From: an archaeon
GTDB taxonomy: Archaea > Iainarchaeota > Iainarchaeia > Iainarchaeales > CSSED10-239
Reading direction: 5' to 3'
NCBI GenBank assembly: GCA_041657425.1
Contig: JBBABY010000004.1
Span: forward strand, 1,377-65,376
Length of the DNA: 64,000 nucleotides
Made by a program: the position numbers and the translations under genes. Under the pieces are notes generated by a model that saw only the letters and a list, made by a program, of their open reading frames with translations, did not search any database and was not told where the DNA came from. Shown in pieces: positions 5,475 to 64,000 of this stretch (its first letter is position 1; each line of letters starts with the position of its first letter).

Positions 5475-5507
5475 TAAATTTAAAAAGATAACAAAATTAG
5501 AATTTTA

Positions 5508-6477: not shown

Positions 6478-6502
6478 TTAAATTATTTTATATTTTTAAT
6501 TA

Positions 6503-6540
6503 TATATAAAATGAGACTATGACTTTTTTTGTGAAATTGA
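6503..6540 (+). promoter_or_regulatory. Promoter-like element sharing the TATA box and tttttttgtgaaattgaa motif with 2376/3076.
   Basis: The tatataaaa box at 6503 and gtgaaattga at 6531 have the same 28-nt spacing as at 3078/3106. The downstream ATG at 6542 is in a different frame from this GTG. Confidence 0.5.
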
Positions 6541-6541
6541 A

Positions 6542-7567: not shown

Positions 7568-7568
7568 A

Positions 7569-9785: not shown

Positions 9786-10286
9786 TTAATTTATTTTCTT
9801 TTGTTCAAAGCTTGGCTTTATTTTTTTATTATATAACACATCAAATTTCTTTGTAGTTTCTAAAATATTTTTTCTGCCCTTCTTATAAACTTGTATTAAC
9901 CCAAGTTCTTTTAAAGTTGGAAGATGATCAATTGGCCTTCTTTTAGTTATTTTATATTGCTCAACCGGACTGTTTAGAGCAATTAATGCTAAAGTGTTAA
10001 GTTCTGACTTCGTTAATTGCTTACCAACTGCAAACAGACTATACTTTGCAAATTCTGGTTTTAATAACATTTCTGCGGAATCTTCATCAACTATAATTTT
10101 TATTGAAGTATTTCTTTTTTCATATTCTTCTAATAAATCTGCTATGATTATCTTTATAGTTTCTTTATCTGCTTCTGGGAAACTCTTTTCTAGTTTCTTA
10201 ATTGGAATGCTTCTTGGGCTCATAAATAGTATTGCTTCAATTGCACACTTAATGTCTTCAATATTTTTAGATTTTGGTTTGTCCAT
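9786..10286 (-). CDS. scpB: Segregation and condensation protein B (ScpB).
   Basis: IEAILFMSPRSIPIKKLEK is a typical ScpB N-terminal winged-helix opening, and a second wHTH-like half is present. Size is 166 aa. The stop abuts the ATG of the next gene. Confidence 0.7.
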   Translation of the reverse strand: MDKPKSKNIEDIKCAIEAILFMSPRSIPIKKLEKSFPEADKETIKIIIADLLEEYEKRNTSIKIIVDEDSAEMLLKPEFAKYSLFAVGKQLTKSELNTLALIALNSPVEQYKITKRRPIDHLPTLKELGLIQVYKKGRKNILETTKKFDVLYNKKIKPSFEQKKIN

Positions 10287-47800: not shown

Positions 47801-49293
47801 ACATTTACTTTTCTTAATTTAATAAAATAATATCCTTTTGGGATGTTATCAAAAGTTGCAGTTCCATTATTATCTGTAACGACAGATGTAAATCTAGTAT
47901 CTTGATAATTAGAATTGCCATCATAAATTAATAAGGTTCCTCCAATTACTGGAAGATTATCTTCATCAACAACAGAAACATTAATATCAGAAATATTACT
48001 TACTGTTTCTTTTTCTAGAAATATCATATAATCTGCTACATTTGGAGTTATATCTCTATTCTCTGGAATGTAACCTTGTGATCTTATAGTTAAAGAATAT
48101 GCTTTACTTGTGTCTATTCTAAATGTTACTCCTGCAGTTGTGTATTGCTTAGTATCTACAGTTTGTTTAGTCCCATTAACGTCAGTAATTAACAAAATAC
48201 TTGTTGGAATTACACCGTCAATTTCAAGACTAGTGTCTTCATCTTTAACTATTACTCTAATATCTTTTGTGGTTATTGTTGTTACAGTATCTCCTGGAAC
48301 GACTGGTGTGTTTATTGCATTAAGTTCTAAACTTACTTGCGTTTCTATATTCTTTGTAATTATAAATTCGGTCTCTGCTGTTTGGTATCTTAAAGAATCA
48401 TCTGTTGCAACAACAATATAGTTTCCGACTTCTAAATTTGGAAATCTCCTAGAACCAAACTGTGATTGACCAGAAGTTACTGGGTTAATTGAATCTCCTT
48501 CCTTATAAACTCTTAAAGTAATTCCATCTAAGAAATTAGTTCCGCTTTTTACTTTTACTGTTGCTTGCCCAAAACTTGTGTTTATTACTTTAGGAGGAAC
48601 TGTTACAATTCCTGTTTCTTGATTAATTACAATATTTTGTCCAGAATAATTCGTTCCAATTGCAGTAGCTACTAATTTCGTACAAGATACTGGAACATTA
48701 AATATACTTGTGCCCGTTGTTACTGTTGATGTTGATGGGTCTATTGATGAGCCATCTTGACAAGTAATTGTTACATTTAAACTTTCTAAAATTGCTTGGC
48801 CATTAGTTCCAACAAATCTTAATGACTTTTCTTGTATTGAAGCAAGAACAAATAGTTCAACAATAAAATTCTGCTTTGTTTTACTTAAATCAATTATTTC
48901 ATCTTTATACTTATATCCTTTTTTATCTACAATTATAGAATAATCTCCAAATTTATTTAGCTCTACTGTTGTTTGTCCTTTACTATCGGTTCTATAGTTC
49001 TGAGTTATTCCATTTAAAGAATCATTTAATTGGAATTCAAAATTTTTTAGTAATTGCCCATTACTATCTGCTAGTCCAATTGTAAAAGTAATATATTCTT
49101 CTTTTTCTCCTACTGCCCCAAATGGTTTAAAAATAAGTAATAGTATTACTGCGATAATTAATACAAATAATATCAAAGACGCTAACGGATGAATCTTGTC
49201 AATTGGCCTCGTTAACCATTTAATTGGAACTCTATTGTTTATTTTATCTAAAAAAGCTTGGTAATTTAAAGCAAATGACATTTTTCTATTCAC
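41863..49293 (-). CDS. Giant (2476 aa) N-terminally anchored surface protein with CarboxypepD_reg-like repeats, a central hydrophobic hairpin and the shared C-terminal module.
   Basis: The N-terminus has FLDKINNRVPIKWLTRPIDKIHP followed by a TM helix. There are at least five prealbumin-like repeats. Near residue 1530-1590 lies GILGVLTQIATSAGWIGPLITVSAAAFPFVLIGGLVGGAAAIAIPTFF. The C-terminal motif is GEGALPKVKFDW...YCDATQL. Confidence 0.85.
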   Translation of the reverse strand: MNRKMSFALNYQAFLDKINNRVPIKWLTRPIDKIHPLASLILFVLIIAVILLLIFKPFGAVGEKEEYITFTIGLADSNGQLLKNFEFQLNDSLNGITQNYRTDSKGQTTVELNKFGDYSIIVDKKGYKYKDEIIDLSKTKQNFIVELFVLASIQEKSLRFVGTNGQAILESLNVTITCQDGSSIDPSTSTVTTGTSIFNVPVSCTKLVATAIGTNYSGQNIVINQETGIVTVPPKVINTSFGQATVKVKSGTNFLDGITLRVYKEGDSINPVTSGQSQFGSRRFPNLEVGNYIVVATDDSLRYQTAETEFIITKNIETQVSLELNAINTPVVPGDTVTTITTKDIRVIVKDEDTSLEIDGVIPTSILLITDVNGTKQTVDTKQYTTAGVTFRIDTSKAYSLTIRSQGYIPENRDITPNVADYMIFLEKETVSNISDINVSVVDEDNLPVIGGTLLIYDGNSNYQDTRFTSVVTDNNGTATFDNIPKGYYFIKLRKVNVINQSGKFTHNPPIDTNMVMTINIGEGTISFNIKNINQETIDFANVKIYDVIGNEIGVDQALQNGTYTRKIKADKVIYVKISKEGYLDYYTELLPIITNETITKEIRLNRVGTITTPTVELVGLYNQQDINASFLAQNSRYYFKFKLINPSAGNIGIRFVVGEQDTAEEDIVYIKPITNSKANISYYSNINLTAVQQDTFAKVIDATFINASQGVYEIQIPVSTVHALRGQAVPIYYSVFTGSPTSIDNLGNQRVYYIDVSEICSENFCISGQFVDTADDIVYDLEAGVNSLVVNKNYDFKYILTNAKSNVYTSNRLAITNVDTTTELETQAINILSYNIFGGGFLQTSTSGNQIRNKMPFTSDYLPSTQINVYDKINIDTTIKPVLLGTTRIQNKIISNQSVVYNEFINFNVAQEYPFTISYEPQNIVPGKPFTLTVTALDNSVLPVSGALVNIYQKLANNQQVTVTSGTYRTDDYGTVAIPIPALNNSEKIIISVEKSGYYAVPVEITINQDILSLKQGTAVVTETSPFIINVRKSNPEGSEKTITIINKTNYSLQLKPFRDDSFSFRYSNYINVSQLQQYLNSQVPSIIIPANGETDLDIKLSASQDTTNLTETLNITGNIIGYVTVDNSQAEYAFNIPMAVKVSVGEGVEEDDCLVVNGVSNPWQAVVSGNDTTSVSFDIVNNCKVKGNDEESITLKTLRAKMVNQKDQYGYYTLNVDGRTITLSEGSYTTLLNDLSPGVHSAILTYYSLDKKMGDIETKIYINAQIETDTGLKYVNTTKDIAFTTEIAIRKIEDCIDFYDGSQKINNMLVITKETIEGQSKEIVIKNNCSTLGTFKLSFCGEDKGYTGCQELRYSNMEGYLQNQLSFNLGTDSQTAGIIKPGSPGGYIIPVRISVLSDSGRAITTIEKRLKVNVHSASGLYMEDPFIEVEKQDEIYISQPVRLLNSDINTTPWDYATQKVGDEGFSKYMILFNSGDNGYKKMKFEQFSTLGNTNSTPPAGINLIRNGGILGVLTQIATSAGWIGPLITVSAAAFPFVLIGGLVGGAAAIAIPTFFSDYTYNPIYNTVNIEQEYKVPDWVLDKKIIITNSEDSQLEYLNIFDITGARYMTYLQAYGVGSGKLAKDKTLSMVIPLCNGSENKTQLNRYNYIINSKNCDSEFSSISETDQKATYDVKCSGAWPRKGIYLQAYVYSFCKYDTTIWPEQAGIKPLVFNISDVNLITRLEAGDIIYKNITFYPTLDDQNAGQDSAFVGSDPIGYSDFRFAIMSKQYPEKPQVDLNMVDCFTDSGKTGKTGEGALPKVKFDWTWNEENINDCSNGDQYCDATQLSQVIINRIVKADEQIKVQRDNGKISCPKSTSQVIDETLNENYSVMSSTPSWNIESVPVGYTGLQEVRLGTEGKLIKVKVAVENRTTTLQTGLLNIDFGSYTPVSYETLDSTGDTISTPVTTSTQAIPITIPADDTADYIFTYGTESSQIIANNIPLTLIYAGANTYTEDLGYTRFVSDINASVHEASNNTSCQVPATTAQFNGVDYIDMWFNKPQYPNNVVTEWDLETQIKPLKQTLEFDAYLITDNYNAQFLNDFDKAYGGKASRGSTSGTGFLSSPGFYNDGIYSSVLKDNTTFALKYSTTPNGVNILVPGLYKVRIDFIYNNEDWKLVNDAGDVDSNVTVTFTYIKGPDNDSVFYRMPFDGFVGQNNNNYSRQNYGLAYIGDSIVIDKEINRELRTEYSSSSNPKKYLNVQFNKDFFKANSNVETRGNILIVKEKQEDQIDMIYSPSVATPVLMSVTRTNLLPFTAYYQLKDHSGQAVTGGSSLGVWSGVSKEDPQYYDFSGDYVYSRFMNFYDRQTTPDERIFNSYAVDWDTVSKRGTVNLRTIFYTPYDTENSPITYTLTSKSRDSVGFYYNSEKKPTSEIKVGNTDNTIDSVNTIFEKVKTDQICVVNTENGKVTEFYWNPKVIYEINDIYNGIEIDGISD

Positions 49294-49412: not shown

Positions 49413-51317
49413 CTATCTACAATGCAGAATATTTGTATCAGAATAACACTCTTGAGCAGTTGCAGAAGTGACCTCTCTTTTTTGGGTAATTCCATATAAT
49501 ACAAGACCGTAATTAGAAGTACATTTTGCAGCAATTACTTTCTTTACTCCGCTACTACTAATTGAACAGACACAGCCCCAATTTTGCCCATTTTCTGTAG
49601 TTAATCCTGCATTAGAACAAGAGTCTCCTGTGCGGTTCTTTGTAGAAAAATATGTTGGTTGTGTTATTAAGTCTGAAGAAGTAATTTCTGGAGGATTTTC
49701 ACTAACTATTGGTTCAGATGGAATTTCCTCTATTGCGTTTGAATTAACACTTGAATACACCAATCCAGAAACATCAATTGCATTGAAATTTAAATCAGAT
49801 TCATTATAACAACTTTTAATAACCTTACAATCAGAATTCATATATTTATTACAGAAAAATGAAAGTACATTTCTGTTTGCTTCACATTGAGAATATTTCA
49901 TTATTTCGTCATTATTTAAAACATAGAAATTTGAATAAGATGTGTTTAATCTTTTATTATCTTTTTGTAAAAATACGATAATAAATTTTTTATTTGGATT
50001 ACTTCTTTCTATAGTAAATTGGAAGGTGTTTCCATTTGGTAAAAACTTAACCTTATCTATTATTTGTGTTTTGGTTAATTTATAATTGTTAATAATTTTA
50101 TATGGTAAATCTATTTCTAAATCATAATTATCAGCATCATATTCATATATTTCTGAAATTGTAGGAGTAAAATCTTCAATATTATCTGCGGCGGTTTTTC
50201 CTGTAACGCACACCTCTCTACAAATGTTATTAAATAAAACTTTATTTTCAACAGAATCTACCTCTCCAACTACGGGAGTTAAACTCCGACCAGTTGTAAA
50301 TTTATACTTTGCATTTTGATCATTTTTTTGTTTACAATAACAATCTACAACATATCTATTTTGTGATGACACTGCTAAATATTGTTGATAATTTCTATAT
50401 TCTGAATTTTGGGTTTTTATAAAATTATTTATTTCGGTGACTACGTCTCCATATCTTTCTTGGGTTGCAACAATTGCATATATTTCTTTATTTAAATTAA
50501 AATTTTGTGAATCTAAATAAACTGTTAAATTGGTATCATTTGTTTGATATTTTTCTTCTGTTTCATAATTGATTATAAAATAAGGAACCGGTAATTTTGT
50601 TCTTGGTGTAGGCATATATCCGAATGCGCCCTCTCCTTCGGAATTGAATCCTAGATATTTTATCTTTTCAATTAAACTTGGGTACATATCTGCATCATCA
50701 ATTGATTGCGTAGCACTTGATTGACCAGAACTATCTGTTTCTTGTGGGAGCTCTACATTTTCTTGATCAGTTGTATTAGGCACTTGATCAAGAGCACAAA
50801 TTGTGTCTTTTAATTTATTTCTAGTTGAGCTACCTAAACTTGAAAATGGATGTAGGTTTGGTTCAATATAGATTCCTGAACTTCTCTTATAACAAACATA
50901 AAATCCAGTTTTATCTTCTGAACATTTATATGTAAATGGAAATCCAGTTACTCTAATAAAACCTTGATCAATACAGCTTTGAGAAAAATAATCCACTGGA
51001 AGAGTTCTAATTTGTGGTATTTTTATATCAATTGGGGTTTGAACATCTCCTTCTACCTCTTTACAATATTGTGTCACATTATTACAAACAACAATTCTTG
51101 GTGGACCGAAACCTTTTACTGCAATATTTCGGTTATACCAATCATCCTGTGGTGCAATTTCTCTTAAATCGTATATAGAATTATTTGAAACACCTTGATC
51201 TGGTATATAACCCATCAAGTTACCGCCTAAATCAGAATTATATGCCCCAGGCAAAGCATATATTCCATTAATAATTAACAAAAATATTGCAAATAATATA
51301 ATTGATTTATTTTTCAT
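49413..51317 (-). CDS. Secreted Cys-rich protein (634 aa), hypothetical.
   Basis: The signal peptide is MKNKSIILFAIFLLIINGIYALPG. Many Cys residues are scattered through the sequence. No family was recognised. Confidence 0.65.
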   Translation of the reverse strand: MKNKSIILFAIFLLIINGIYALPGAYNSDLGGNLMGYIPDQGVSNNSIYDLREIAPQDDWYNRNIAVKGFGPPRIVVCNNVTQYCKEVEGDVQTPIDIKIPQIRTLPVDYFSQSCIDQGFIRVTGFPFTYKCSEDKTGFYVCYKRSSGIYIEPNLHPFSSLGSSTRNKLKDTICALDQVPNTTDQENVELPQETDSSGQSSATQSIDDADMYPSLIEKIKYLGFNSEGEGAFGYMPTPRTKLPVPYFIINYETEEKYQTNDTNLTVYLDSQNFNLNKEIYAIVATQERYGDVVTEINNFIKTQNSEYRNYQQYLAVSSQNRYVVDCYCKQKNDQNAKYKFTTGRSLTPVVGEVDSVENKVLFNNICREVCVTGKTAADNIEDFTPTISEIYEYDADNYDLEIDLPYKIINNYKLTKTQIIDKVKFLPNGNTFQFTIERSNPNKKFIIVFLQKDNKRLNTSYSNFYVLNNDEIMKYSQCEANRNVLSFFCNKYMNSDCKVIKSCYNESDLNFNAIDVSGLVYSSVNSNAIEEIPSEPIVSENPPEITSSDLITQPTYFSTKNRTGDSCSNAGLTTENGQNWGCVCSISSSGVKKVIAAKCTSNYGLVLYGITQKREVTSATAQECYSDTNILHCR

Positions 51318-51375
51318 ATTTATTTCCCATTTCCTCTAATTTATCTTATTCATTTTCAATTAAAATTTAATTATC

Positions 51376-54300
51376 TTAATTAATATTACTAAAATTATAT
51401 TCAGATACATTACTACATTTTTCTGGATCTGAATTTAATAGACACACTTTTGCAAATAATTTTTTGTTTTCTGCGGAATTAATATCTCCCATATGTATTC
51501 TACAAATATTATTTTCATATGCACTACACCAATACCAAGTATCTTGATTATCGTTATTCCAATAAATTCTTGATTCAGAATTGTTGTTTGGGTTAATAAT
51601 TTCTAAATTCAAATAATTATTAGAGGTGTTTGCTCTAAAAGTTGGTGCTTGGAGATTTAATTTTTTTATTTTCTCTGGATTTAACCAAATATTTAATGAA
51701 TCATTTGTAGTATTAAAACAAACTTGATTATATTTTATTAAACCTAACATATATCCTACATTTACAGTTTCTATTCCTGAAAATAAATCTTCGAAATCAA
51801 TAAGTTCTTGATTTTCTGTTTCTAAATTATTAGGTATATTGTATGATTTAATATTTGCATTTATTTCTGGGGTTAATGACATATTTAATTGTAATTCGTC
51901 TCTTGAGGTTAATACCAATTGAGGATTATTTCCTCTAAAATTCAAATAAACAAATACAGTTTCTTTACCTGCCGTTTTGTTTATTACTGGCTCATTATAA
52001 CTACCGTTTGGTTTTAAATATTTATAATTATAATTTCCAGCAGAGATTATTTGTATTGGTCTTATATTTTTATAAGAAATCTTTTCTATTTGTGTTCCTG
52101 TAGATTTAAATGATAAAACATATCCATCTTGTACTGCGGCCCAATCTTCATAGGTTGTAGGAGCATATGCATTACCAGAAATTGCCCCCATTGCTGAATC
52201 ATTAAATTTAAATGGCACGCCGTAGTAGTTAGTATATATTGCATTTATTGGATTTGTAAACAATAAATTCTTTTTATAATCTGGATTACTATCCATATTA
52301 TAATAATCTAAAAATCTTTTTGTATCTTCTGAGGTATTTTTCACACTATATTTAATATTAGTTCCTTCTAATTTTAATTCAAATAAATATAATCCTGGTC
52401 CACTTATTTCTTGTACTTCTGAAGTATTCAATAACGCAATTGGTTTATTTGATTCGTTTAAAAACTGAATAGAAGTAAATATATCTTTTGTTAATCCGTT
52501 AGTTAAAGACCCGTAAGTTTTAGTATTAACTAATATTGGAGATATTGAATCACCATAGTATATTTTCATATTTTCTATTACCTGCTTTAGAAATACAATA
52601 TTCTTTCTTTTAAAATCTAAATCAGTTGAAGTATTGTTTAAATATGTTTTAAAAGAGGCTTGATTTTTCAAAAAAGAATCAACAGTTATTTGATAGGTGT
52701 AAATATCTTGCATTGGACTTGTCATATCTCTTTTTGCATTTGATTCAGTGGTTAAATAAGTCAAGTACTTATAATTATTATTTCCACTTATTTTGTTTAT
52801 TCTTTCAGATATTTCGTTTAATTCTATTTTTGTTCCAATAATTGAATCATTTTTATTTGTAAATGTTAAATCCAGTATTATATATTTTCTTAATTCTTCT
52901 GGAACCTTGTTTAATGTAGTAATTAAAGTTTCTAAATATACATCTGGATCTTCAGAGTAACTAAAATCAGAAGTAATTAAATTTGCTACTTGAATATCAT
53001 TTCTTATATCCGTTAAATAAATATCTGAATTTTCATTAATTTTATTTTCTTCGGATTTACTAAACATTACGCCATCTAAAGTAATTATTTTTTGTTCTTC
53101 AATTAATTTTACTTTCTCTAATAATGCAACTTTTAATTGATCCTGATCACAATATTTTTCTCCGTAGTCACAAGAATTGTGCTTTATTCCGTCTGCATCA
53201 TAAATAAATAACAATTTATTAAATCCATATTTCTCTTGATTTATTTTGCCAGTTAATCCTGTATTATCTGTTCCTTGTGGATTATAACAATTACCTGTGT
53301 CTCCTGTTGATGAAGTAATAAATTTAGACAATGAACTATGATTTTCACTTGAAATTAATTTTTTACTACAACCAAAAGCCTTAAGATCTGCATTAAGAGT
53401 AAATGTTATATCTTTTACTTTTTTATCAAACCAGTACCATCTTTTTTGTTTTATTGAAAAGGTTTTAACAAGATTATTTTCTAAAAATGGTTTATTTTCA
53501 ATTATTCTTTCTGTATCATTAAGTAAATCTATTGGTCTATTAATACAAACTTCAATTTTCTTACCATCTGCTAATACCGTTAATTTTGAAATTACATCGC
53601 CATTTACAATTGTTCCACTCCCTGCTAAAATATAATTTTTAGGATTTTGTAGTTCTGGCAAATCAATTGTTTCTATAAAACAAGCAGTAGCATAATTACT
53701 TATTTGTTTAAAATTATATTTTGAACTTAAAAATAATTTTAAAATATTTATATCGACAACAGAATTAGAATAAGTTAATGTAGAATATTTAGTGGTGTTA
53801 TTACTAGAATAATAATTTGCATTATCATTATTATAACTTAAACTTAATCTTTCTTGTAATGTTGCAGTCTCTAAAGTGTCACAATCAAACATCCCTGTTC
53901 CTACCTCATATAGTTGTCCAATTTCTTGTAATTTAGGTTCTATAGGGGTAATTGTAACTGGTTCTATAGGCAAATCTTTAATATCAATAGGTGGTAACTC
54001 TACATTTATATCTATATCTGGACATAATTCTTGCTTTATTATTTGCCCTGCTGCTGTAGATAAATCTAATGTGCCAACGGCATTTCCAGTTCTTGGATCA
54101 CATCTTGTTGCTGCGGCGTCTCCAGGAGAACAACTATAACAAATTGCGCCTACTCCATTATAAATTAAATTACCAACATTCATATTTCTAGGATAATATT
54201 TTGATGAAAAATATCCTTCTCCACAGCTACCTGGACAAATGCCTCCATTTATTGTTTGGATATTTGATGTTACTGTTACTTCTCGTGTTCTAATATCATA

Positions 54301-55848
54301 TAAAAAATCTAAATTATAATTATAATAATCTTGTGAACTAGTTGTTGGTTTTGAATTTAAAGAATATAAGAATGGAGAATTTGTATTTAATTCTGTTTCT
54401 TTTAATTCTTCTAAGATTTTTGAACCACTAGAATATCTATGATATCCAAAAACTTTTGTTTCAGTACTGTATATCACAAGTTCGTGACTACTTCTTTCTA
54501 TTGGCATAAATGCATAAACATCTATAGTTTGTGGATTACATAAATTAGATGAACTTCTTGGAATTTTTAAATTATATCCGGTTATAATTCTACTATTATT
54601 TTGTGTAGTATATATTTTATCATAATCTTTAGATGTAAGTGCTAATATTTTACCACTTGGCTTTATACTATTTTTGACTAGATTGTTCATTAATCCAGGA
54701 TATGTTGATCTTAAATTTGGAGCTAAAGAAACTAAAAAATACATTTCTGTTGGAGAAATTACCGAATAATCAGATAAAAGATTTACTAAATTTACTTCTA
54801 ATTCACAAGCGATATCTTTTACAGGTGTTAGTGAATCTATTGCAACATCTGTTGCATCTGCTACCGCAACTTCATTAGGAAATACATCTACTTTTAATGG
54901 GTCTACGTTTTCTACAGTGGTTGCTGCATTTTTATTTTTTATAATAATTTCAGTATTTAATATTACGTGCTTATATCTTATAATATCTGAATTAGTATAA
55001 TTACTTGCATAAGTTGGCGGAAATCTTCTATCAACTCTTGGCGTTATTGTTCCTGCAGGAAGGTAATCATTTCCAGTTTGCGTTATGTTTTTATTAGATT
55101 GCGGTGTTGTAACTTCTGTTAATTTTGATTTATTTACATCTACTTCAAAAGCAAAATCTAAATTATACAAATTCGTTTTTTTCTGACTTATTGCAAGATT
55201 AATTAAAGTTAATATGTCGCTTTTATCGTGCACTAAATCATATTCTGTTAAATAATCTCCCAATCCATTTCCTATTGGACTATAATTCCTAACATAAACG
55301 TTATCTTGATTATCAAATGCATTATAAGGTTTTGTTGGAATAAATACTACTATGTCCATTGTAGTTTTATTTTTATTACACACACTATCTGAAACATCAA
55401 AAGTAATTTCTTCAGAATAAAAATCTTCTGGTTTATATAAAAATCTTTGATTTGCCCTTGTTTCAGATCTAGCTCTGTTTGTTTTTTCTTTATTTACAAA
55501 ATAATCTAAATCTGAAAAATATACGGTCTTATCTTTCAAAGGAACAGAAACTAAAATATGAGGCATAAACTTTATATTTCCCTCAGCAGACACTACTAAA
55601 TTAGAATAATTTTTATTTAAAGCAACAGTTACTTCACAACCACCATCTTTTTTTGCATAAACTGTAGTGTCTTTTAAATCATTACCTGTAAATGGACTTA
55701 TTTCAATATAGTTTATTCCTTTATCTCTTGCAAATGTTTTTGTGCTGCTCTCTAAATTGGGTTTTGTTTGATATGCAGCAAACACATTTGTTATAAATAT
55801 TATTAAAAATAGAATTGTAAACACCGTGATTATCTTTTTAGCTATCAT
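51376..55848 (-). CDS. Giant (1490 aa) secreted protein carrying a divergent copy of the shared C-terminal module.
   Basis: The signal peptide is MIAKKIITVFTILFLIIFITNVFAAYQ. The motif EKYCDQDQLKVALLEKV (53101..53160) aligns with the YCDATQ motif of the paralogs. Confidence 0.8.
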   Translation of the reverse strand: MIAKKIITVFTILFLIIFITNVFAAYQTKPNLESSTKTFARDKGINYIEISPFTGNDLKDTTVYAKKDGGCEVTVALNKNYSNLVVSAEGNIKFMPHILVSVPLKDKTVYFSDLDYFVNKEKTNRARSETRANQRFLYKPEDFYSEEITFDVSDSVCNKNKTTMDIVVFIPTKPYNAFDNQDNVYVRNYSPIGNGLGDYLTEYDLVHDKSDILTLINLAISQKKTNLYNLDFAFEVDVNKSKLTEVTTPQSNKNITQTGNDYLPAGTITPRVDRRFPPTYASNYTNSDIIRYKHVILNTEIIIKNKNAATTVENVDPLKVDVFPNEVAVADATDVAIDSLTPVKDIACELEVNLVNLLSDYSVISPTEMYFLVSLAPNLRSTYPGLMNNLVKNSIKPSGKILALTSKDYDKIYTTQNNSRIITGYNLKIPRSSSNLCNPQTIDVYAFMPIERSSHELVIYSTETKVFGYHRYSSGSKILEELKETELNTNSPFLYSLNSKPTTSSQDYYNYNLDFLYDIRTREVTVTSNIQTINGGICPGSCGEGYFSSKYYPRNMNVGNLIYNGVGAICYSCSPGDAAATRCDPRTGNAVGTLDLSTAAGQIIKQELCPDIDINVELPPIDIKDLPIEPVTITPIEPKLQEIGQLYEVGTGMFDCDTLETATLQERLSLSYNNDNANYYSSNNTTKYSTLTYSNSVVDINILKLFLSSKYNFKQISNYATACFIETIDLPELQNPKNYILAGSGTIVNGDVISKLTVLADGKKIEVCINRPIDLLNDTERIIENKPFLENNLVKTFSIKQKRWYWFDKKVKDITFTLNADLKAFGCSKKLISSENHSSLSKFITSSTGDTGNCYNPQGTDNTGLTGKINQEKYGFNKLLFIYDADGIKHNSCDYGEKYCDQDQLKVALLEKVKLIEEQKIITLDGVMFSKSEENKINENSDIYLTDIRNDIQVANLITSDFSYSEDPDVYLETLITTLNKVPEELRKYIILDLTFTNKNDSIIGTKIELNEISERINKISGNNNYKYLTYLTTESNAKRDMTSPMQDIYTYQITVDSFLKNQASFKTYLNNTSTDLDFKRKNIVFLKQVIENMKIYYGDSISPILVNTKTYGSLTNGLTKDIFTSIQFLNESNKPIALLNTSEVQEISGPGLYLFELKLEGTNIKYSVKNTSEDTKRFLDYYNMDSNPDYKKNLLFTNPINAIYTNYYGVPFKFNDSAMGAISGNAYAPTTYEDWAAVQDGYVLSFKSTGTQIEKISYKNIRPIQIISAGNYNYKYLKPNGSYNEPVINKTAGKETVFVYLNFRGNNPQLVLTSRDELQLNMSLTPEINANIKSYNIPNNLETENQELIDFEDLFSGIETVNVGYMLGLIKYNQVCFNTTNDSLNIWLNPEKIKKLNLQAPTFRANTSNNYLNLEIINPNNNSESRIYWNNDNQDTWYWCSAYENNICRIHMGDINSAENKKLFAKVCLLNSDPEKCSNVSEYNFSNIN

Positions 55849-56003: not shown

Positions 56004-58937
56004 TTAGTTTCTTATACAACTAAATTCGGAGGTTGTAACATTATTGTTTGTTTCAAGTTTAGTGTCTATTAGATCAGTTAATGGTTCTGAGATTGTTTTT
56101 GGATTATAAACTACATCTAATGTTGAACCATCATAGTTGATACATGCTTTTTTTGCAGCAACTAAATCAAATATGTGCTTCATTGATCTGACGTCACTTG
56201 CAGTTCCATAAACGTTTGTTAATTCTACTTGATCTTGTGCAATTTTACTATCAGAAGTATATAATCCTGCACTATCGTTTGCTGAATCAATATATAAGTA
56301 ACTTGTACTGTGTCCTGTTCTGAAATTTGATGGAGTGTAGAATATTCCATACATCCAAACATTTCCGGTTCTTGTAATTATATCTTTATTCCATTCTACA
56401 CCGTAACTAAAGCTCTGGCTTTGTGTTACTGGCGCCAATTCTGATTTTGTTGAAACAAGATCATGGGTTGCTAAGAAGCTTTCAAGTAATGGTATTCCTG
56501 TAAAATCATTACATTGGGAAAAACCAGTCCAGTATGCTAATGATTGTCCAGGATTTGCAACTTCTCCACCTTCTCCTTGTGGCATGCCTATTGATAATTT
56601 ATAGAAGACATATGCATCTGTATTTACTGCTTTGTTTGTAACTTTAAGAACAACTGGTGTTGGTCTTGAAGGAATATATCTTACATTTAACACATTATTT
56701 TGAGATCTATTAATTGATAATAATTTTCCTCTTTCATTTCCATTATTCATAATTGTGAAATCTTTAACTTCTGTTGTTTTAATTGTTGAAATGGTGTTTG
56801 AAGAAATATATCCTTCAGTATACATTGTGCCTTGTCCGTTATTTTCAGAATCTAAGAATATTGGGACTTTATCTTGTAAATAATCTACACCATAACCGTT
56901 TCTTGTCTTATCTACACTACCAACCATTCCATTAAGTGGCATATAGTAAACTGAAGAATCAAGTTCTGGCTCTTGTTCTTTATCAATTATTATTTCTATC
57001 TTTCCGGTCATATCTCCAGCATCATTGAATAATTCCCATTGATCGTCATAAGTTATTAATAATTTAATACTATATCTTCCTGGTCCTGGTAAACCTGTTT
57101 GAGCAACACTATCTGCATATGTTGGTTTAAACGCAAATTTTTCTGCGTCTACGAAGTATTTGTATAATGGAGCATAACTGTCTGTACTTGTTATTAATCC
57201 ATTTCCATACCATCCAGGTGTTTGAGAATTGAATGTAAATCTATAATAGTCATCAAAATCTTTTTTGAAATCTGCACTATATCCATCTTTCATTAAGTAT
57301 GCTTTGAAAGTATATAATTCATTTTTGAAATTTGGATCATATTTAATTAGATTTTCTGAAGTCTTTGGAATATTACATGCTGTTGTTCCTTCAGTGTTTG
57401 TTTGCATTTCTAGAGTATTATCTATTAAATTATTTCCGGTTTCATTATTTGCTATACTTGCATCAAAATTTGTTAAAGTAATAATTACTTTTACTGTATC
57501 TGTTGGACCAGGTGCTGCAGACAAAGTTATTTGTTTATCATCTACATTTATTATTCCACTATTTAGATAATCAGAATCTACACTTTCTACTCCTGATGCA
57601 AGAACTACCCAATTGAATGAATTTTCTGCTTTTTTAACTACTGTATAATTAATATCAAATAATCTAATTGAGGTATTTACTGGAGGTGTTGCTAATCGAT
57701 AATTTCCTCTAATTTTATAACTCACATTTATTTTTGTTCTTTGACTTTGTATTCCGCCATTTGCGAAATTTGCATTTAAATAAGTTATTCCTACATTATT
57801 TACATCACTAATTAATGATTGATCTGAAGAATTAACTGGGCAAGTAAATCCTGAGCTATTTGCTTTTACATATTCGTTAATAGTGTTTATCTTTTGTAGT
57901 GCTTCGATTGTAAATTGAGTTGCATCACAATAGATTCCGTTTTTTGAAACATCACACCATTCTTTATTATTTACTTTTTCACTAGTTATTGTTGTTACTG
58001 CATTGTCTGCTTTAAATTGCCAATCAAAAATAATTCTTGGTAAAACTTCAGTTCCTGTTGTTCCGATTGGTTTACCATCTTCACTTGTACAATCTAATTG
58101 TTCTGGTGGAATTATGTCAATATTTTCATCAACTCTTGAGTTGAATAATAAATGGAACTTTTGTATTTTTTCTTCAGATGGATTTGGCATTCTATTTCCA
58201 TAAACGTCATCAAAATTTGTAATTTTTTTTTCTAAAATTGTTTTTGCATTATTTATTCCAGAGGTAAATATCTGATACCAACTTTTTCCTAAAATTTCAC
58301 TTGTCCCAATTGATATCTTTACTGGTTGTCTATCAAATCTTGCTTGGACATATCTTATTAATAAAGTTCTATATTCATAAGCATCTTTTATAGTTTGATT
58401 TCCATCTTCAAATAATATTGGTCTTTTTTGTCCATCTGTCTTTGTATTGTTAGAATCGATTACTGAAATCTTTTCTGTTTTTTCTGCAACTCTTATTGTT
58501 GGACTTTTATTATCTATATATGTTTCAATTTTCTTTGTTACTATGAAATCCACATCTAATACGTTTTGATCAGTTAAGACTATTGAAGTTTTTGGATTTA
58601 TTACTAATTCATCATAAGACTCTTCATAGAAATAATCTTTTTCTTTATCACTAGAAATATTTACTCTATCAACTTGTAATTCCATATTCATTTTTTCATT
58701 TAAATTTTGATAAGTGGTATATGCTGAATATGCTCCACCTATTACTCCATAAAGCACTGGGCCTCCAGCTAACAGTTTATCAAAAGTACTTACTAGCAGT
58801 CCTGCACCTTTTTCAAGAAGACTTTGTTCTACTTTGGCTTTAGCCGCATCCACCGGATCAGCAGAAACAGTCCCTATATTTACTAATAGCATTAAAGCTA
58901 TTGTTAGTCCTAAAATAAATTTTAGATTTGATTTCAT
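56004..58937 (-). CDS. Secreted 977-aa protein equivalent to the C-terminal third of the 2476-aa paralog.
   Basis: The signal peptide is MKSNLKFILGLTIALMLLVNIGTVSA. The motifs GTEVLPRIIFDW and IYCDATQF are present. FKAYLMKDGYSADFKKDFDDYY and GRYSIKLLITYDDQWELFNDAGDMTG align with the 2476-aa protein. Confidence 0.8.
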   Translation of the reverse strand: MKSNLKFILGLTIALMLLVNIGTVSADPVDAAKAKVEQSLLEKGAGLLVSTFDKLLAGGPVLYGVIGGAYSAYTTYQNLNEKMNMELQVDRVNISSDKEKDYFYEESYDELVINPKTSIVLTDQNVLDVDFIVTKKIETYIDNKSPTIRVAEKTEKISVIDSNNTKTDGQKRPILFEDGNQTIKDAYEYRTLLIRYVQARFDRQPVKISIGTSEILGKSWYQIFTSGINNAKTILEKKITNFDDVYGNRMPNPSEEKIQKFHLLFNSRVDENIDIIPPEQLDCTSEDGKPIGTTGTEVLPRIIFDWQFKADNAVTTITSEKVNNKEWCDVSKNGIYCDATQFTIEALQKINTINEYVKANSSGFTCPVNSSDQSLISDVNNVGITYLNANFANGGIQSQRTKINVSYKIRGNYRLATPPVNTSIRLFDINYTVVKKAENSFNWVVLASGVESVDSDYLNSGIINVDDKQITLSAAPGPTDTVKVIITLTNFDASIANNETGNNLIDNTLEMQTNTEGTTACNIPKTSENLIKYDPNFKNELYTFKAYLMKDGYSADFKKDFDDYYRFTFNSQTPGWYGNGLITSTDSYAPLYKYFVDAEKFAFKPTYADSVAQTGLPGPGRYSIKLLITYDDQWELFNDAGDMTGKIEIIIDKEQEPELDSSVYYMPLNGMVGSVDKTRNGYGVDYLQDKVPIFLDSENNGQGTMYTEGYISSNTISTIKTTEVKDFTIMNNGNERGKLLSINRSQNNVLNVRYIPSRPTPVVLKVTNKAVNTDAYVFYKLSIGMPQGEGGEVANPGQSLAYWTGFSQCNDFTGIPLLESFLATHDLVSTKSELAPVTQSQSFSYGVEWNKDIITRTGNVWMYGIFYTPSNFRTGHSTSYLYIDSANDSAGLYTSDSKIAQDQVELTNVYGTASDVRSMKHIFDLVAAKKACINYDGSTLDVVYNPKTISEPLTDLIDTKLETNNNVTTSEFSCIRN

Positions 58938-58962
58938 ATTTTACACCTTATTTTTTTAAATA

Positions 58963-61900
58963 TTAATTTAATTGATTACAAGCATTAATTAATATAGTAT
59001 GCCCAGTTCCTGTTGTTGATAATATTGCACTCCACTTATTTTTTGGATAAGAACTATCTGTCCCAAAATAACAATATCGATAATGTGTTTTATCTGTACA
59101 AACATAAACTTGAGACTCTCCACTTGGTCTTACATTAAATAAATTTTCTGCCGTTGTTCCAACTTTCTTATTTTTATCACAAATTGCTCCTGTTGTTGCA
59201 GAAATTGCTTCTTGAATTCTTTGTTCTGAAACGGTTGGTTCTGTTGCTGGTGGTTCTGTTGCTGGTGGTTCTGTTGCTGGTGGTTCTGTTGCTGGTGGTT
59301 CTGTTGCTGATGGTTCTGTTGCTGATGGTTCTGTTGCTGATGGTTCTGTTGCTGATGGTTCTGTTGCTGATGGTTCTGCTACAGATATTACACAAATTGT
59401 TGCTGCAGAATCCATAAATTTTCGTGCATCTGCTAGATTTAATTCTATAGATTTTTTATCTGGAAATTCCATAGACGCATATCTTTTCGCACCATCTAAG
59501 TAATTTTTAGCAGTTATTAAAGGCGTACATGGATGGTTATATCGAACAATCTCAGATTCTAGAGTTGCTGATAAACTAATTATTACTAAATTTAATTCTT
59601 TAATTGTTTTTTCAGCACCATCTGTTGAAGAATTTGCAATACAAACGCCATTTACACAATCGTAACCTTCTAAGCAAGGACATCCAACTAAAGTTCCTTT
59701 CTCACATTTCCCACTAATACAGTTCTCTGTGCTTTTACATGCAGGATTACAATCTGTTTTCTCTGCCTCTGGTTTTACGGCAGCTACTGCTTGATATCCT
59801 GGACAACCGTCTTTACCTTCGTTTCCTTTTTGCTCACACCATTTCTTTTTTAATAATTCTTGACTTGGACTATCTGCTAAACCATCCTGCTCCAAAGATT
59901 TTAATGCTAAACTTAATGTGGTTTCTTTCATTGCCTTTTCTAAAGCTGCTTCTGCTACTTTTTCTGACTTCCCACTTGATTTTGCAATGTCTTTAACTTC
60001 TGCAGGAGTAAATAAGTTCTTTGCTAATCCAAAAAGAGATTTCATCCAGTCTCCCATGGATTGTGCACCCCAGGTTGCAAGGCCTGTGAATACGCCGTCT
60101 CTTAGTCCACTGAATATTGCCATTTTCCATCTTGCTGCTGAGGAAATTGAGCCTTCTACTTTTACTGTTTGACCGTAACAACGGTTGATAAGATTGACTG
60201 TATCAAAGCTTTTTGCTGTGACTTCGTTTCCTGTATTTTCTGAGTATTGATATCTATAAAGATCAAATTCGTATCTATCAAGGTCAAGGCATTGAGTTAC
60301 TGGTCTTACTTCTACTCTAATCTTTCCAACATTTCTTTCTGAACCTCTTGCTCCACTTACTTTTGAATATACATTTACTAAATATATTCCTGGCATTGCA
60401 CCCATTGACATTACTTTTATTTCTTCACTACTTCCGGTTGCTGGAACTGTAATGCTTTCTTTTGGACTTATTACTAAACCTGTACAGTCGTCGCATGAAA
60501 GACGATAAACTGTTTCTGAACCACAACCTTTGTTTTCAATTGTAAAAGTATCTGGAGTTCCTGTTTCTGGTGCTGTTAATACTTTCTTTGAGATTGTATA
60601 ACAGTCTTTTAAACTTACAACGTGAAGTATAAATTTATATTCACTTAATATTTCTTGATTACCTGCAGATGTTGCGTTAACTGATCTAAAGATAATCTTT
60701 CCTTTAATATCTCCTGTGTATCTTCCAACTGGAGTGTATTTTAAATTTACATTATATAATTTTTCTTGATCTACTGTGTCGTAGATATTCTTGTAGTAAC
60801 CATTAGATAATTCAACTAATCTGTTACCAACATTAACTGTAAATACTCCTAATGGATTTCCTTCGAACTCAACTTTTGCTGAAAGTCCTCCGTTTAATGG
60901 AACTGGTCTTTCTCCAACAGCACAGTTGTTCTTTAAATTGAATTGTGTATCTGCATAGTAATCAACAATTGTAGTTTCCCACATTATTTCTGATAAACCT
61001 ATACAGTTTGCGTTATCCATTAACCCTTCAAAACCAACAGTTAGAGTTGCTGGTAATTCTGCATCCCAAACATACTCTCTATTGTATCTATCTCTTAATC
61101 TAATTACAAGCTTTGCAGGAACATTTCTTAATTGCTTAATACTTTCTGCTCTTGGACTTGTAAAGAATCTTGCTTCTATTTCTTGTTTATTATTATAATT
61201 GTCTGCACTTGCATCTCCACTTGAATCAATACCAGGAATGCTTATTTCATTATATCCTGCAAGAGACGCATTTACTCTTTCTACATCTATCACATCAATC
61301 TGGTCATCGTCTCCAACAAAAGTAATTGATTGGATTATCAATTCACTTTCGCTTAAGTTTTCAATAGTGAATTTGGCATTTTCGGTTGTCTTTGTATTTA
61401 CATTTAATGACACACCAAGTCTTATTGGAGTTATTTTAAATATATTTTCTGTAACTTCAATTTCAGTTATACTTGTTTCATATTCTGGTGCTTCAACATA
61501 AACATATACTTTGTTTCCTGATTCTTGGCCAGGAACATTATTTACTGAAGCGATTCCAAGTGTGCCAACTTTAACTGGACTAGCTAAAAGATCTCTTTTA
61601 AATCTATCCTTTACTCTTACAGTTACTGGACCTTCTACTTCTATACCGCTTGTAGTATCTTTAACTTCAACTTGAAGATTAAAGTTCTTTCCTGAAGGTA
61701 CGACTTCCGGAGTAATCTTAACTGTAAATGTTTTATCTGAAAGAACATGTATTACTATTAATTTTGTAAATATTACTCTTTGATCAGAAATAAAAGTTAA
61801 TACAAATTGTCTGTCTCCTTTTAAGATTGGAACAAATTGCATTTCTCCACTTACTGTTGTGTGTGGATTAAATTGGCTTACTACAACTTTGTATTCTGAA

Positions 61901-64000
61901 TTGTTATCATTAACTGATAATGTTGTTGTGTCTCCATTTGGTTGAGTAATTATCATATTTTTAAATGTTAGTCCTTTGTCTAGATTTTTTATTTCTAATC
62001 TTGAATTACTATAGATTCTATCTTTATTATTATTGATTAAACCAAATTTTAATTTATAATTTTGCTGAGGAGTTGCTGTGTATTCGCTTACAACGTCTTC
62101 TCTTAAGTCTTCATCTAAGTTTGTAATGTTTAGACTAAAACAAAAATCATCAGAACATGCTTGTTCTTCTCCAATATTAAAGTTTTCTGTTTTATAAGTC
62201 ATATATTCTACTAAATCATTATTGGTTTGATCAACAGGATCATTTTCATATTCATCATCTTCATTATATCCAAAACCTAAATAACTAATACTTACTTCTT
62301 CGCCATATACTGCTTCATCTTTTACTTTTATGTCTGCAGTAACTGTATAAGCATTTGCATAATTCTTGCCGTAGATTTCATCAAATACTACTTTAAACCA
62401 TTTACTGTCTCCTTCTGTTATAGTATCTACGTCATCAACATTATCATATCCTTCTTCAGAACTATACTGAGTATATCTTGTAACTACTGCATTTGGAAGC
62501 TCTATTGATTTTATAAAAATACTATCATTTTCAAAATATGGAGTTGCTACAGAAGACTTAGAACCAGTTCTTACAATTGCTCCTAATTCTTGGAACTCTT
62601 CATCACTATCTCTATCTTGTGGAATTAATAATAAGAATTTTGCTTTGTATTCTCCACCTGCTCTCAAATCTTTATTTATCCTATTGCCTGTATCATTAAA
62701 GAAACCTAAAAATTCAATTTGTGGTTTTTGTAAAGCATTTACTTTAGGATATAATGTTACCTTTAATTCATTTGATTGATTTGGTTTGATATAAACATAC
62801 TCTGATTGAGTTATTCCTAAATTACTTGTAATATCAGAAACTACTGCATAAACTTCTGTATCTGAAACTAAATCTATAATCTCATAAGTCCCATCAACAT
62901 TAGCAAGGTCTCCACCATAGACTGATGTTCTTGAACTATATTTATCAAATAATATTATGTTTGCTCTTGGAACTGGTTCTCCGTCTTTATCAACTACGGA
63001 AATATTTAATGTGCCTTTAACAACTACAATTGGAATTTGAATGGTTTCAAAATCAACTGCATTTCTTACATCAAATACAAAATCTTCACTTGATCCAATT
63101 GATGCACCTCTGAATGCTTTTGCATAATAATTACCATTACTTACTCTAAATGTACAATTGCCATTGAAATCTGTTATTTTTGAATCATAGTCTGTTAAGA
63201 AACCAGTTTCAGAATCATATAATACAACTTGTGCATGACTAAATCCTTTTCCGGTTTCACTATTAACAACTCTTACGTTTAATGTTGCTGCTGTTAATGG
63301 AGTTACTAACTGTAAAGTTATTGTTGCTTGAGGAGTTGTTGGTACTGTTGCTATTGCTATAATATTATTTTGTGCACCAATCATATATCCTTCTTTTTCT
63401 GCAACTATTCTATAAATTTTATTTAAATTATAAACTGGAACTGTTGCAAAACCATTTGCGTCTGTTAAGAATCCGCTAGAAATTTCTGCATCTCCTTCTT
63501 TTAATTTTAAATAAACTCCCTCAATTGCCTGGCCATTTGCTTTCTTTACTTTCACTAAAATATATCCTGCTATTGATCTTGTTAAAATTACGGTTTGACT
63601 TGTTGTTCCTGTAACTGGGAAAGGCATTTCTGTAGAACCATATTCTGCATTTGATCTTGTATCTGTTACTCTTAAAGTATAATTACCGGTTTCCACACCT
63701 GTGATTGAACAAACACCTGTAACTGTTACACAATTTTTTCCTAAAATTGCAACACCGTTCTGATGTAAGCTTGCGGTTACTCCTGAAAGAGATTGACCAT
63801 CTCCTAATACTGTAATATAAACTGGATACGCTCCTTCAAAATTATTAACTTCTGCGATTAAATCTAAATTTAATGTGCTTTGGGTAATTGATCCGTCGTA
63901 TCTTGTTTGGTAACCTGGGATAATTATTGACTTTACTCTTAATTGACAAGCACTATCAGCTGTAACTTCTACAACTCCATTTTTTACATTAACTGGTCCT
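58963..64000 (-). CDS. Giant surface protein, 5'-truncated by the window edge (at least 1678 aa). It is equivalent to the N-terminal two-thirds of the 2476-aa paralog plus a Cys-rich/EPSAT tail.
   Basis: The frame stays open from the track's GTG (63696) to position 64000 in my own translation (GPVNVKNGVVEVTADSACQLRVKS...). CarboxypepD_reg-like repeats are present. There is colinear similarity to the 2476-aa protein (CSDDFCFSLN vs CSENFCISGQ, and others). The tail has an EGF-like Cys cluster and EPSAT/EPPAT repeats. Confidence 0.8.
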   Translation of the reverse strand, partial: GPVNVKNGVVEVTADSACQLRVKSIIIPGYQTRYDGSITQSTLNLDLIAEVNNFEGAYPVYITVLGDGQSLSGVTASLHQNGVAILGKNCVTVTGVCSITGVETGNYTLRVTDTRSNAEYGSTEMPFPVTGTTSQTVILTRSIAGYILVKVKKANGQAIEGVYLKLKEGDAEISSGFLTDANGFATVPVYNLNKIYRIVAEKEGYMIGAQNNIIAIATVPTTPQATITLQLVTPLTAATLNVRVVNSETGKGFSHAQVVLYDSETGFLTDYDSKITDFNGNCTFRVSNGNYYAKAFRGASIGSSEDFVFDVRNAVDFETIQIPIVVVKGTLNISVVDKDGEPVPRANIILFDKYSSRTSVYGGDLANVDGTYEIIDLVSDTEVYAVVSDITSNLGITQSEYVYIKPNQSNELKVTLYPKVNALQKPQIEFLGFFNDTGNRINKDLRAGGEYKAKFLLLIPQDRDSDEEFQELGAIVRTGSKSSVATPYFENDSIFIKSIELPNAVVTRYTQYSSEEGYDNVDDVDTITEGDSKWFKVVFDEIYGKNYANAYTVTADIKVKDEAVYGEEVSISYLGFGYNEDDEYENDPVDQTNNDLVEYMTYKTENFNIGEEQACSDDFCFSLNITNLDEDLREDVVSEYTATPQQNYKLKFGLINNNKDRIYSNSRLEIKNLDKGLTFKNMIITQPNGDTTTLSVNDNNSEYKVVVSQFNPHTTVSGEMQFVPILKGDRQFVLTFISDQRVIFTKLIVIHVLSDKTFTVKITPEVVPSGKNFNLQVEVKDTTSGIEVEGPVTVRVKDRFKRDLLASPVKVGTLGIASVNNVPGQESGNKVYVYVEAPEYETSITEIEVTENIFKITPIRLGVSLNVNTKTTENAKFTIENLSESELIIQSITFVGDDDQIDVIDVERVNASLAGYNEISIPGIDSSGDASADNYNNKQEIEARFFTSPRAESIKQLRNVPAKLVIRLRDRYNREYVWDAELPATLTVGFEGLMDNANCIGLSEIMWETTIVDYYADTQFNLKNNCAVGERPVPLNGGLSAKVEFEGNPLGVFTVNVGNRLVELSNGYYKNIYDTVDQEKLYNVNLKYTPVGRYTGDIKGKIIFRSVNATSAGNQEILSEYKFILHVVSLKDCYTISKKVLTAPETGTPDTFTIENKGCGSETVYRLSCDDCTGLVISPKESITVPATGSSEEIKVMSMGAMPGIYLVNVYSKVSGARGSERNVGKIRVEVRPVTQCLDLDRYEFDLYRYQYSENTGNEVTAKSFDTVNLINRCYGQTVKVEGSISSAARWKMAIFSGLRDGVFTGLATWGAQSMGDWMKSLFGLAKNLFTPAEVKDIAKSSGKSEKVAEAALEKAMKETTLSLALKSLEQDGLADSPSQELLKKKWCEQKGNEGKDGCPGYQAVAAVKPEAEKTDCNPACKSTENCISGKCEKGTLVGCPCLEGYDCVNGVCIANSSTDGAEKTIKELNLVIISLSATLESEIVRYNHPCTPLITAKNYLDGAKRYASMEFPDKKSIELNLADARKFMDSAATICVISVAEPSATEPSATEPSATEPSATEPSATEPPATEPPATEPPATEPPATEPTVSEQRIQEAISATTGAICDKNKKVGTTAENLFNVRPSGESQVYVCTDKTHYRYCYFGTDSSYPKNKWSAILSTTGTGHTILINACNQLN
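59236..59380 (-). repeat. 15-bp tandem repeat (9 full units plus a partial one) encoding (EPSAT)5(EPPAT)4.
   Basis: tggttctgttgctgg occurs 4 times, then tggttctgttgctga 5 times, then a partial unit. It lies in frame inside the giant CDS. Confidence 0.9.

Follow-up and report, generated by a model that had tools for sequence, protein, structure and literature searches.

Evidence for an old fission of a giant surface-protein gene in the Candidatus Forterrea family of Iainarchaeota

Composite and split ('Rosetta stone') genes are familiar in comparative genomics, and split protein genes occur in DPANN archaea such as Nanoarchaeum equitans. Here we analyse a pair of adjacent genes, Cup (upstream) and Cdn (downstream), in a stretch of 64,000 nucleotides (nt) of an archaeal genome, which we call the window. 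As in those cases, one ancestral open reading frame (ORF) has very probably given rise to two adjacent genes on the same strand, each with its own start and both under constraint. By contrast with the splits of the Nanoarchaeum equitans type, the product here is an extracellular giant, and the cut lies in a hypervariable insert and not between enzymatic domains. Because the product is extracellular the downstream piece had to acquire an export signal.

Two other systems provide useful comparisons. SlaA and SlaB of the Sulfolobales form a two-component archaeal surface layer (S-layer) of stalk plus canopy. There too neighbouring genes specify an elongated protein anchored in the membrane and its large secreted partner, and a functional analogy is possible; however, Cup and Cdn derive from one gene. 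Searches of Pfam, NCBIfam and PDB sequences gave no match that would indicate homology with SlaA/SlaB, nor did Foldseek at E ≤ 0.001. The bacterial fibrillar adhesins (SpaA/Sdr/CPE0147-type) share with the present proteins a stalk containing the prealbumin-like repeats SpaA and CarboxypepD_reg of Pfam. The repeat domains of CPE0147 are weakly like one immunoglobulin-like (Ig-like) subdomain of the C-terminal module of Cdn (E about 0.01, TM-score 0.4 on the target), whereas the module as a whole has no match. The mode of anchoring also differs, in that there is an N-terminal transmembrane (TM) helix with a conserved cytoplasmic motif here, not a C-terminal sortase signal.

The closest described locus is that of Candidatus Forterrea multitransposorum. 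In passages of the paper on this organism located by keyword, five giant proteins are counted and a role in cell-cell interaction is inferred for them; these passages do not mention a split half, a distinction between types C and D, a junction element or recurrence of splitting. The closed genome (CP045477.1) has a cluster encoding, in order, proteins of 2671, 559, 2323, 1867, 964, 2466, 809 and 2147 amino acids (aa), which we assign as A (2671), B (2323), Cup (1867), Cdn (964), D (2466) and E (2147). Since the cluster includes Cup, one of the five giants, as those passages count them, is the anchored half of the split gene.

The window (contig C4:1377-65376) comes from a 1.1-Mb, 29%-GC metagenome-assembled genome (MAG). 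The host is a tiny uncultured archaeon of the Iainarchaeota and a member of the Candidatus Forterrea family. In this region the minus strand carries all the large genes, which in the order of transcription encode A (2953 aa), B (2317 aa), Cup (1863 aa), Cdn (977 aa), proteins of 1490 and 634 aa, D (2476 aa), a protein of 722 aa and E (2102 aa). This is the same cluster, in the same family and the same order, as that of Ca. Forterrea. In the Iainarchaeota the order of these giant surface-protein genes with N-terminal membrane anchors is kept as A, pilin-like, B, C, D and (E); the succession A / pilin-like / B / C / D is common to this genome, Ca. Forterrea, GW2011_AR10 and genome G033. Outgroups to the family include archaeon GW2011_AR10 and Ca. 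Iainarchaeum andersonii. The features of the pair are as follows.

58963..64000, minus strand (the part inside the window; contig C4:60339-65930): Cup, the upstream half, 1863 aa in full, orthologous to the N-terminal ~1450 aa of fused C.
60082..60291, minus strand: the last conserved segment of Cup, residues 1422-1491 (CLDLDRYEF...CYGQ...SAARWKMAIFSGLRDGVFTG), ending in the amphipathic 'helix 1'; recognized by its identity within the family and its presence in fused C.
58966..60081, minus strand: the C-terminal tail of Cup (residues 1492-1863), which is hypervariable, orthologues sharing about 10% identity; corresponds to the variable insert of fused C.
58938..58962, minus strand: the intergenic spacer of 25 nt, with the TAA stop at 58963-58965 and AAGGTG at 58944-58949.
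56004..58937, minus strand: Cdn, the downstream half, 977 aa, predicted to be secreted; defined by its ORF and by BLASTP and homologue searches.
58860..58937, minus strand: the Sec-type signal peptide of Cdn, residues 1-26, with predicted cleavage between VSA and DP; a leader is present in all orthologues.
58653..58766, minus strand: a Gly-rich segment of Cdn with a D-x-VNIS motif, residues 58-95, 'helix 2'; 42% identity, predicted helical.
56007..58160, minus strand: the C-terminal module of Cdn (the C-module), residues ~260-977, with motifs FHLxFNS / LPxVxFDW / YCDATQF and eight cysteines that are invariant or at least 90% conserved.

In other families of Iainarchaeota the position between B and D is occupied by a single gene, fused C, with one ORF of 2200-2470 aa (e.g. 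2434 aa in G033 and 2444 aa in GW2011_AR10). Both halves of our pair find their best match in this one gene. In G033 it is matched by Cup with 472 bits (256 for D) and by Cdn with 233 (191 for D); the corresponding scores for Cup and Cdn are 414 and 191 bits in GW2011_AR10, and 303 and 193 bits in genome G038. Thus each piece has its orthologue in a contiguous part of a single outgroup gene. In the initial annotation the pair was said to mirror the 2476-aa protein D of the same window. That protein is only a paralogue, and the unsplit counterpart is type C, the single ORF in the B-D slot.

The direction of the change was obtained from phylogeny. In a maximum-likelihood tree of the C-module the split proteins form a clade of 11 rows (support 100/100), the sister of which is fused C (100/99); the node uniting them has support of 96/90 and leaves D outside. 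The N-terminal 1430 residues, in a tree rooted on B, give the same topology with SH-aLRT support of 98-100. A larger tree of 114 rows, made by quick search under LG+G4, comprises a C-type clade of 51 rows and a D-type clade of 63 rows that are all fused, including the 2476-aa protein. Fused paralogues and the fused C of other families lie outside the split clade, and the split state is therefore derived. Because the three trees agree, we take the pair to be the C orthologue of the Forterrea family, D to be a paralogue, and the direction to be that of fission. We conclude with considerable confidence that Cup and Cdn are the products of an old fission of gene C in the common ancestor of the Forterrea family. 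Whether there had been fission or fusion was left undecided in the initial annotation; the split of one architecture at a natural boundary is real, and the trees settle the direction.

At the junction the TAA stop of Cup is followed by TATTTAAAAAAATAAGGTGTAAAAT and the ATG of Cdn, and the two ORFs are in different frames, in agreement with the initial description of two separate ORFs 25 nt apart. The Shine-Dalgarno-like sequence AAGGTGT stands ahead of the start codon of Cdn and is conserved in eight genomes, as are the ATG and the signal peptide, so that the downstream piece carries its own signals for both translation and export. That Cdn had gained a signal peptide was recognized earlier; to this may be added the ribosome site, also conserved in every genome of the family that was examined. 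No terminator-like site was found in the 25-nt spacer. When the leader of the downstream gene was sought elsewhere in the genome as a copy of a ribosome-site/leader cassette, it matched only itself. The split pair is present at eight loci, with upstream proteins of 1600-1870 aa, downstream proteins of 962-1009 aa, spacers of 17-242 nt and varied relations of frame. Both halves are conserved at 40-65% identity.

The frame of Cup (58963-63999) leaves the window, and the start codon is found at the window-equivalent position 64554, giving 1863 aa. The N-terminus is MGLSKIYYYLENKYY followed by a strong TM helix, and the start preceding that helix reads MGLSKIYYYLENKYYDFVEKTGLYKITDKIDKFMPSF. This conforms to an anchor motif, YY-x-LED-x-YY ... 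P-x-YK-x-D-x-IDK-x-PSF followed by a single TM helix, that is also present in about 45 fused homologues. Beyond the anchor come prealbumin/CarboxypepD_reg repeats and a beta-rich body. Pfam PF13620 and PF17802 match Cup, D and E, and the CarboxypepD_reg and SpaA prealbumin-like repeats are the only Pfam domains in the stalks of the giant proteins. The helix-1 segment has a mean identity of 61% among orthologues of the family, compared with 49% for the body of Cup, and it is found in 24 fused C-type proteins. The initial description of the tail that follows holds good: it consists of an amphipathic segment, an EGF-like cluster of Cys, a stretch of EPSAT/EPPAT repeats and, last, a small Cys domain. 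The first of these is of amphipathic/coiled type.

Cdn begins with the signal peptide MKSNLKFILGLTIALMLLVNIGTVSA, followed by DP, and every orthologue has an N-terminal hydrophobic leader; Cdn has no membrane anchor of its own. Residues 260-977 align with the C-termini of more than 100 giants, and the conserved residues of the module include C283, C328, C337, C366, C521, C809, C932 and C974. Given the eight conserved cysteines and the signal peptide, the C-module is expected to be extracellular. An AlphaFold2 model calculated from an alignment of 74 rows has a mean predicted local distance difference test (pLDDT) of 81; residues 280-977 are mostly above 90, while 1-280 are low, and within that low-confidence region helices are predicted at 40-55 and 61-78. 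An earlier model from 12 sequences had a pLDDT of 46 and was unusable. With the better model Foldseek gave no match to the PDB at E ≤ 0.001, only a generic likeness in the Ig-like subdomain, and against BFVD two matches at E ≤ 0.001 with a TM-score of about 0.1, i.e. meaningless. A profile search of PDB sequences returned 0 matches, a Pfam scan found no domain in the proteins of 977, 1490, 634 and 722 aa, and an NCBIfam scan gave 0 matches for all five proteins scanned. The model thus indicates a C-module that folds confidently and resembles no known structure.

The paralogue D and the segment of it that corresponds to the split are as follows.

41863..49293, minus strand: the fused paralogue D, 2476 aa; compared by BLASTP and in the trees.
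44620..44763, minus strand: a hydrophobic segment of D rich in Gly/Ala (residues 1511-1558), whose position corresponds to that of the split.

BLASTP aligns Cup 71-1113 (window numbering) with D 255-1273 at 21% identity (E = 7e-23), and Cdn 281-951 with D 1783-2461 at 26% identity (E = 6e-41); the only off-diagonal matches are weak ones between CarboxypepD_reg repeats. Profile-profile alignments of the halves with D, built from orthologues, have E = 4e-60 and 3.5e-59. The colinearity of the adjacent pair with the N- and C-terminal parts of D that was first noticed from the sequence alone is therefore borne out by pairwise and profile comparison, and the motif pairs quoted at that time are all found aligned. 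The downstream match had been put at 900 residues; it is colinear, but its robust part is about 700, and the first 250 residues of Cdn align weakly. On the upstream side the alignment is confident as far as residue ~1417 of Cup (1423 of D), and on the downstream side from D residue ~1545. Bracketed by these limits, the hydrophobic segment of D (1511-1558) lies exactly at the junction, as had been proposed.

Comparison with fused C locates the breakpoint. In these proteins the order across the junction is ...C-[YH]-x3-V ... W-x2-A-x-K-x-G amphipathic helix, a variable stretch, a G-x-NP-x3-G-x2-G segment and then the remainder of the protein. The variable stretch is coiled-coil-like, Gly-rich or furnished with EGF-like Cys clusters. 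A hidden Markov model (HMM) of the 38-aa Gly-rich motif found no fused protein at E < 0.01, being too short; the insert was therefore measured from the end of the helix-1 HMM match to the start of the C-module. In 24 fused proteins it is 258-1120 aa long (median 407) and contains 0-74 Cys. In the split pairs the tail plus the part of the downstream protein that precedes the module amounts to 388-660 aa. From these lengths the 'extra tail' of Cup is the pre-existing insert of the C lineage. The initial suggestion that the tail had replaced a hydrophobic segment after the split is not upheld, as fused C already has this long and often Cys-rich insert at that place. Within the family the mean identity is 61% in the helix-1 segment, 10% in the tail, 42% in the Gly-rich motif and 46% in the C-module. 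The cut lies at the end of the insert, just before the Gly-rich segment.

The junction of fused C has no strongly hydrophobic segment: the highest mean over 19 residues on the Kyte-Doolittle scale is 1.07-1.73. Values above 1.8 are reached by about half of the other proteins, most of them D-type, and their hydrophobic spans cover 19-109 residues; note that 'D-type' in this comparison means the absence of a helix-1 HMM hit, a proxy that includes some C-type proteins. By sequence position the helix-2 segment of Cdn corresponds to the latter half of the hydrophobic segment in D-type proteins.

EGF-like Cys units occur on both sides of the split. In some members of the family such a unit follows the signal peptide of Cdn directly (ACSATSCPSGQSCVNNECVG in P0010), and at another locus (L044, 5016-6518) the unit ACNPACSGATPNCVN lies immediately behind the signal peptide of the downstream protein. 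This placement would fit a breakpoint inside a shuffling insert.

The distribution of fused and split forms was surveyed among relatives, as the initial annotation had proposed; stand-alone Cdn is found in the Forterrea family, and mostly fused frames in other families. A whole-genome search of 40 relatives revealed stand-alone orthologues of Cdn of 960-1030 aa (40-61% identity) in the same genus and three other genera of the family. For 19 other families of the order, most of the best matches were located within open frames of 2200-3255 aa. A set of 1.84 billion representative proteins contains about 10 relatives that stand alone and are full-length. The remoter matches in that set cover residues ~250-955 only, mostly at the C-terminus of proteins of 2200-3250 aa. 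Of 78 genome loci, eight are stand-alone, all in the Forterrea family, and about 45 are complete fused ORFs with the N-terminal anchor motif.

The 114-row tree requires at least three changes to the split state, all within the C-type clade, and there is no fission among its 63 D-type proteins. One of these is the event in the Forterrea family. A second, well-documented event is seen on a metagenome scaffold of 47% GC encoding proteins of 2581, 161, 1843, 983 and 2392 aa. Here the pair consists of an 1843-aa protein with the anchor motif, helix 1 and a long Gly/Cys-rich tail, and a 983-aa protein with a signal peptide. The upstream gene has its own TAA, and a 16-nt spacer containing GTGAT precedes the ATG. 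The third candidate, P0029, is a protein of 987 aa with a signal peptide and an ATGA overlap. There were accordingly at least two, and probably three, independent fissions at the C insert. Three further apparent splits were not counted. That at L060 is a scaffold gap of 100 N, and that at L094 is ambiguous. At L082 (3096-9653), in one MAG, it is another giant gene that is broken, and in a different place: a 692-aa part with the anchor motif is followed by a 33-nt gap and then by 1481 aa. This looks like a frameshift, and is probably a frameshift or assembly error, not a conserved split.

How might the two products work? Gene C was cut inside the long, fast-evolving insert between two conserved helices, at a position that in D-type paralogues is often taken by a Gly/Ala-rich hydrophobic segment. 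In the scheme we propose, the upstream product retains the N-terminal anchor and the stalk, and the variable insert would become a free, polymorphic C-terminal tail on display. The downstream product comprises helix 2 and the ~700-aa Cys-containing module and, having its own AAGGTG, ATG and Sec signal peptide, should be exported separately. The two genes are likely to be co-transcribed, and the head is predicted to be exported by Sec and cut after VSA. The secreted half may then stay on the cell, its Gly-rich helix re-pairing with the amphipathic helix of the anchored half to give one surface structure for cell contact. We would give this association slightly less than an even chance.

Several observations weigh against the account given here. 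The upstream context available for P0029 is only 166 aa, and the 114-row tree behind the count of fissions was a quick one. In hhalign the junction helices of C-type align with the hydrophobic segment of D at a confidence of 0-2 (upstream) and 4-7 (downstream); residue-level homology being this weak, the equivalence is positional. Lastly, at one locus of the family (L017; G020:C3:19000-34000, 5028-9859, minus strand) two unrelated genes, encoding 279 and 1329 aa, separate the halves, so that tight coupling is not obligatory. The 1329-aa protein is Asn/Lys-rich and apparently coiled-coil, and both inserted proteins have leaders.

These genes of G020 bear on the chief alternative, that the products became functionally independent after the fission: the stalk would display a variable tail and the 977-aa protein would be free or otherwise attached, with no complex. 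We regard this as a real if minority possibility. Besides the two leader-bearing genes that part the halves in G020, it is favoured by the existence of other stand-alone proteins with a signal peptide and C-module (the 1490-aa neighbour of Cdn and loci L096, L097 and L114), and by the lack of conservation of the tail of Cup. The terminal Cys domain of the tail is ruled out as a universal docking site: orthologous tails are only about 10% identical, and some of them lack the domain. Independence is harder to reconcile with the arrangement of the genes, since the halves are adjacent, co-oriented and in unchanged order in eight of the nine family loci with enough flank, with short spacers, a conserved ribosome site and no terminator. 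Moreover, both segments flanking the junction are conserved at or above the level of the body, and Cdn lacks an anchor of its own.

A different role for the conserved junction helices, as a membrane-active element with which the head inserts into the membrane of a partner or host, is in our estimate doubtful. On this hypothesis the D-type helices would form a Gly/Ala-rich hydrophobic hairpin, which in C-type would be opened by the hypervariable displayed insert, and in the split pair the Gly-rich helix would lie ~30 residues from the N-terminus of the mature head. That placement resembles the place of the fusion peptide in a cleaved viral glycoprotein. Searches of BFVD and the PDB for a viral class I-type fusion protein fold gave TM-scores of about 0.1 with the Cdn model, in which residues 1-280 are of low confidence. 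If the hypothesis were true, the cluster would be a contact or fusion apparatus of these symbiotic archaea.

Turning to the origin of the pair, gene fusions are in general more frequent than fissions in prokaryotes, and on that ground it might be supposed that two ancestral genes were fused repeatedly, the Forterrea family retaining the ancestral split state. We consider this highly improbable. Paralogues A, B, D and E, and C in every other sampled family, are single colinear ORFs, and on the trees of both halves the split proteins make up a single derived clade whose sister is fused C, fused D and B branching outside the two. Repeated fusion would need many independent events at one point. 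We give even less credence to a scenario in which the pair arose when the neighbouring 2476-aa gene was duplicated and a split followed. Proximity and colinearity of the genes speak for it, but the halves are nearer to the fused C of other families (27-28% over ~1500 aa; C-module 233 bits) than to D (21% and 26%), and D is a separate clade with its own orthologues in the same genomes. Finally, the chance that what is really one ORF has been interrupted by an error of assembly or sequencing, or by a recent pseudogenizing stop, is negligible, for although the window comes from a MAG, and the apparent split at L060 is a run of N, the stop, frame change, AAGGTGT and signal peptide recur in independent assemblies of at least eight species, including closed Ca. 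Forterrea, with 40-65% identity in both halves.

In this genome two further genes are inserted between Cdn and D.

49413..55848, minus strand: two genes between the split pair and D, encoding 1490 and 634 aa, each with a signal peptide; no counterpart at this position in Ca. Forterrea.

The 1490-aa protein (51376-55848, minus strand) has a signal peptide and an unmatched N-terminal part of 800 aa, and then a C-terminal region resembling the end of the 2317-aa giant B, with 38% identity over 560 aa. Another match to this protein is one of 1947 aa encoded on contig C2. The gene, which Ca. Forterrea lacks at this position, codes for a second free-standing 'head' with a new N-terminal part. In the 634-aa protein (49413-51317, minus strand) the final ~70 residues read C-x-N-A-G ... 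W-G-C-V-C ... K-C-T-S-N ... E-C, and by eye resemble the small Cys domain that ends the tail of the upstream protein in genome G002 (L013, 14760-19850). On this likeness by eye, the small terminal Cys domain may be a module shared among proteins of the cluster.

Elsewhere in the window, a 605-aa secretion/pilus ATPase of the T2SSE type (535-2352, minus strand) has an N-terminal 4Fe-4S dicluster ferredoxin domain (Pfam Fer4_11 + T2SSE). The alanyl-tRNA synthetase (25462-27213, minus strand) is only 583 aa long and has tRNA-synt_2c and tRNA_SAD, with no C-terminal domain detected; an adjoining ORF of 296 aa has no Pfam match. A protein of 1118 aa (14449-17805, minus strand) contains three CHB_HEX_C_1 / Fn3_assoc repeats, GLUG motifs and a weak match to Peptidase_M26_N, and is another large surface protein outside the giant cluster. 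In the assembly as a whole, contigs C3, C9, C15 and C16 have GC contents of 37%, 47%, 62% and 50%, respectively, compared with 26-30% for the others; the four are probably contigs of other organisms or of viruses that were placed in the same bin.

As an evolutionary event the fission of gene C is clean, well supported and recurrent, yet ordinary, and the function of the cluster does not follow from it alone. It recurs only in the class of paralogues that has gained a long variable insert and lost the hydrophobic segment of the junction, and this recurrence is a tidy example of a loosely constrained loop predisposing a gene to splitting. The family of giant surface proteins to which it belongs is uncharacterized though noticed before, and accounts for about 5% of genomes that are themselves very small. 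By its position the fission shows where the modules naturally part into an anchored stalk, a displayed hypervariable segment and a conserved head. It also provides two tractable pieces with which to approach the family: a secreted head of 977 aa that folds confidently in silico, and a short pair of conserved helices as the candidate joint.

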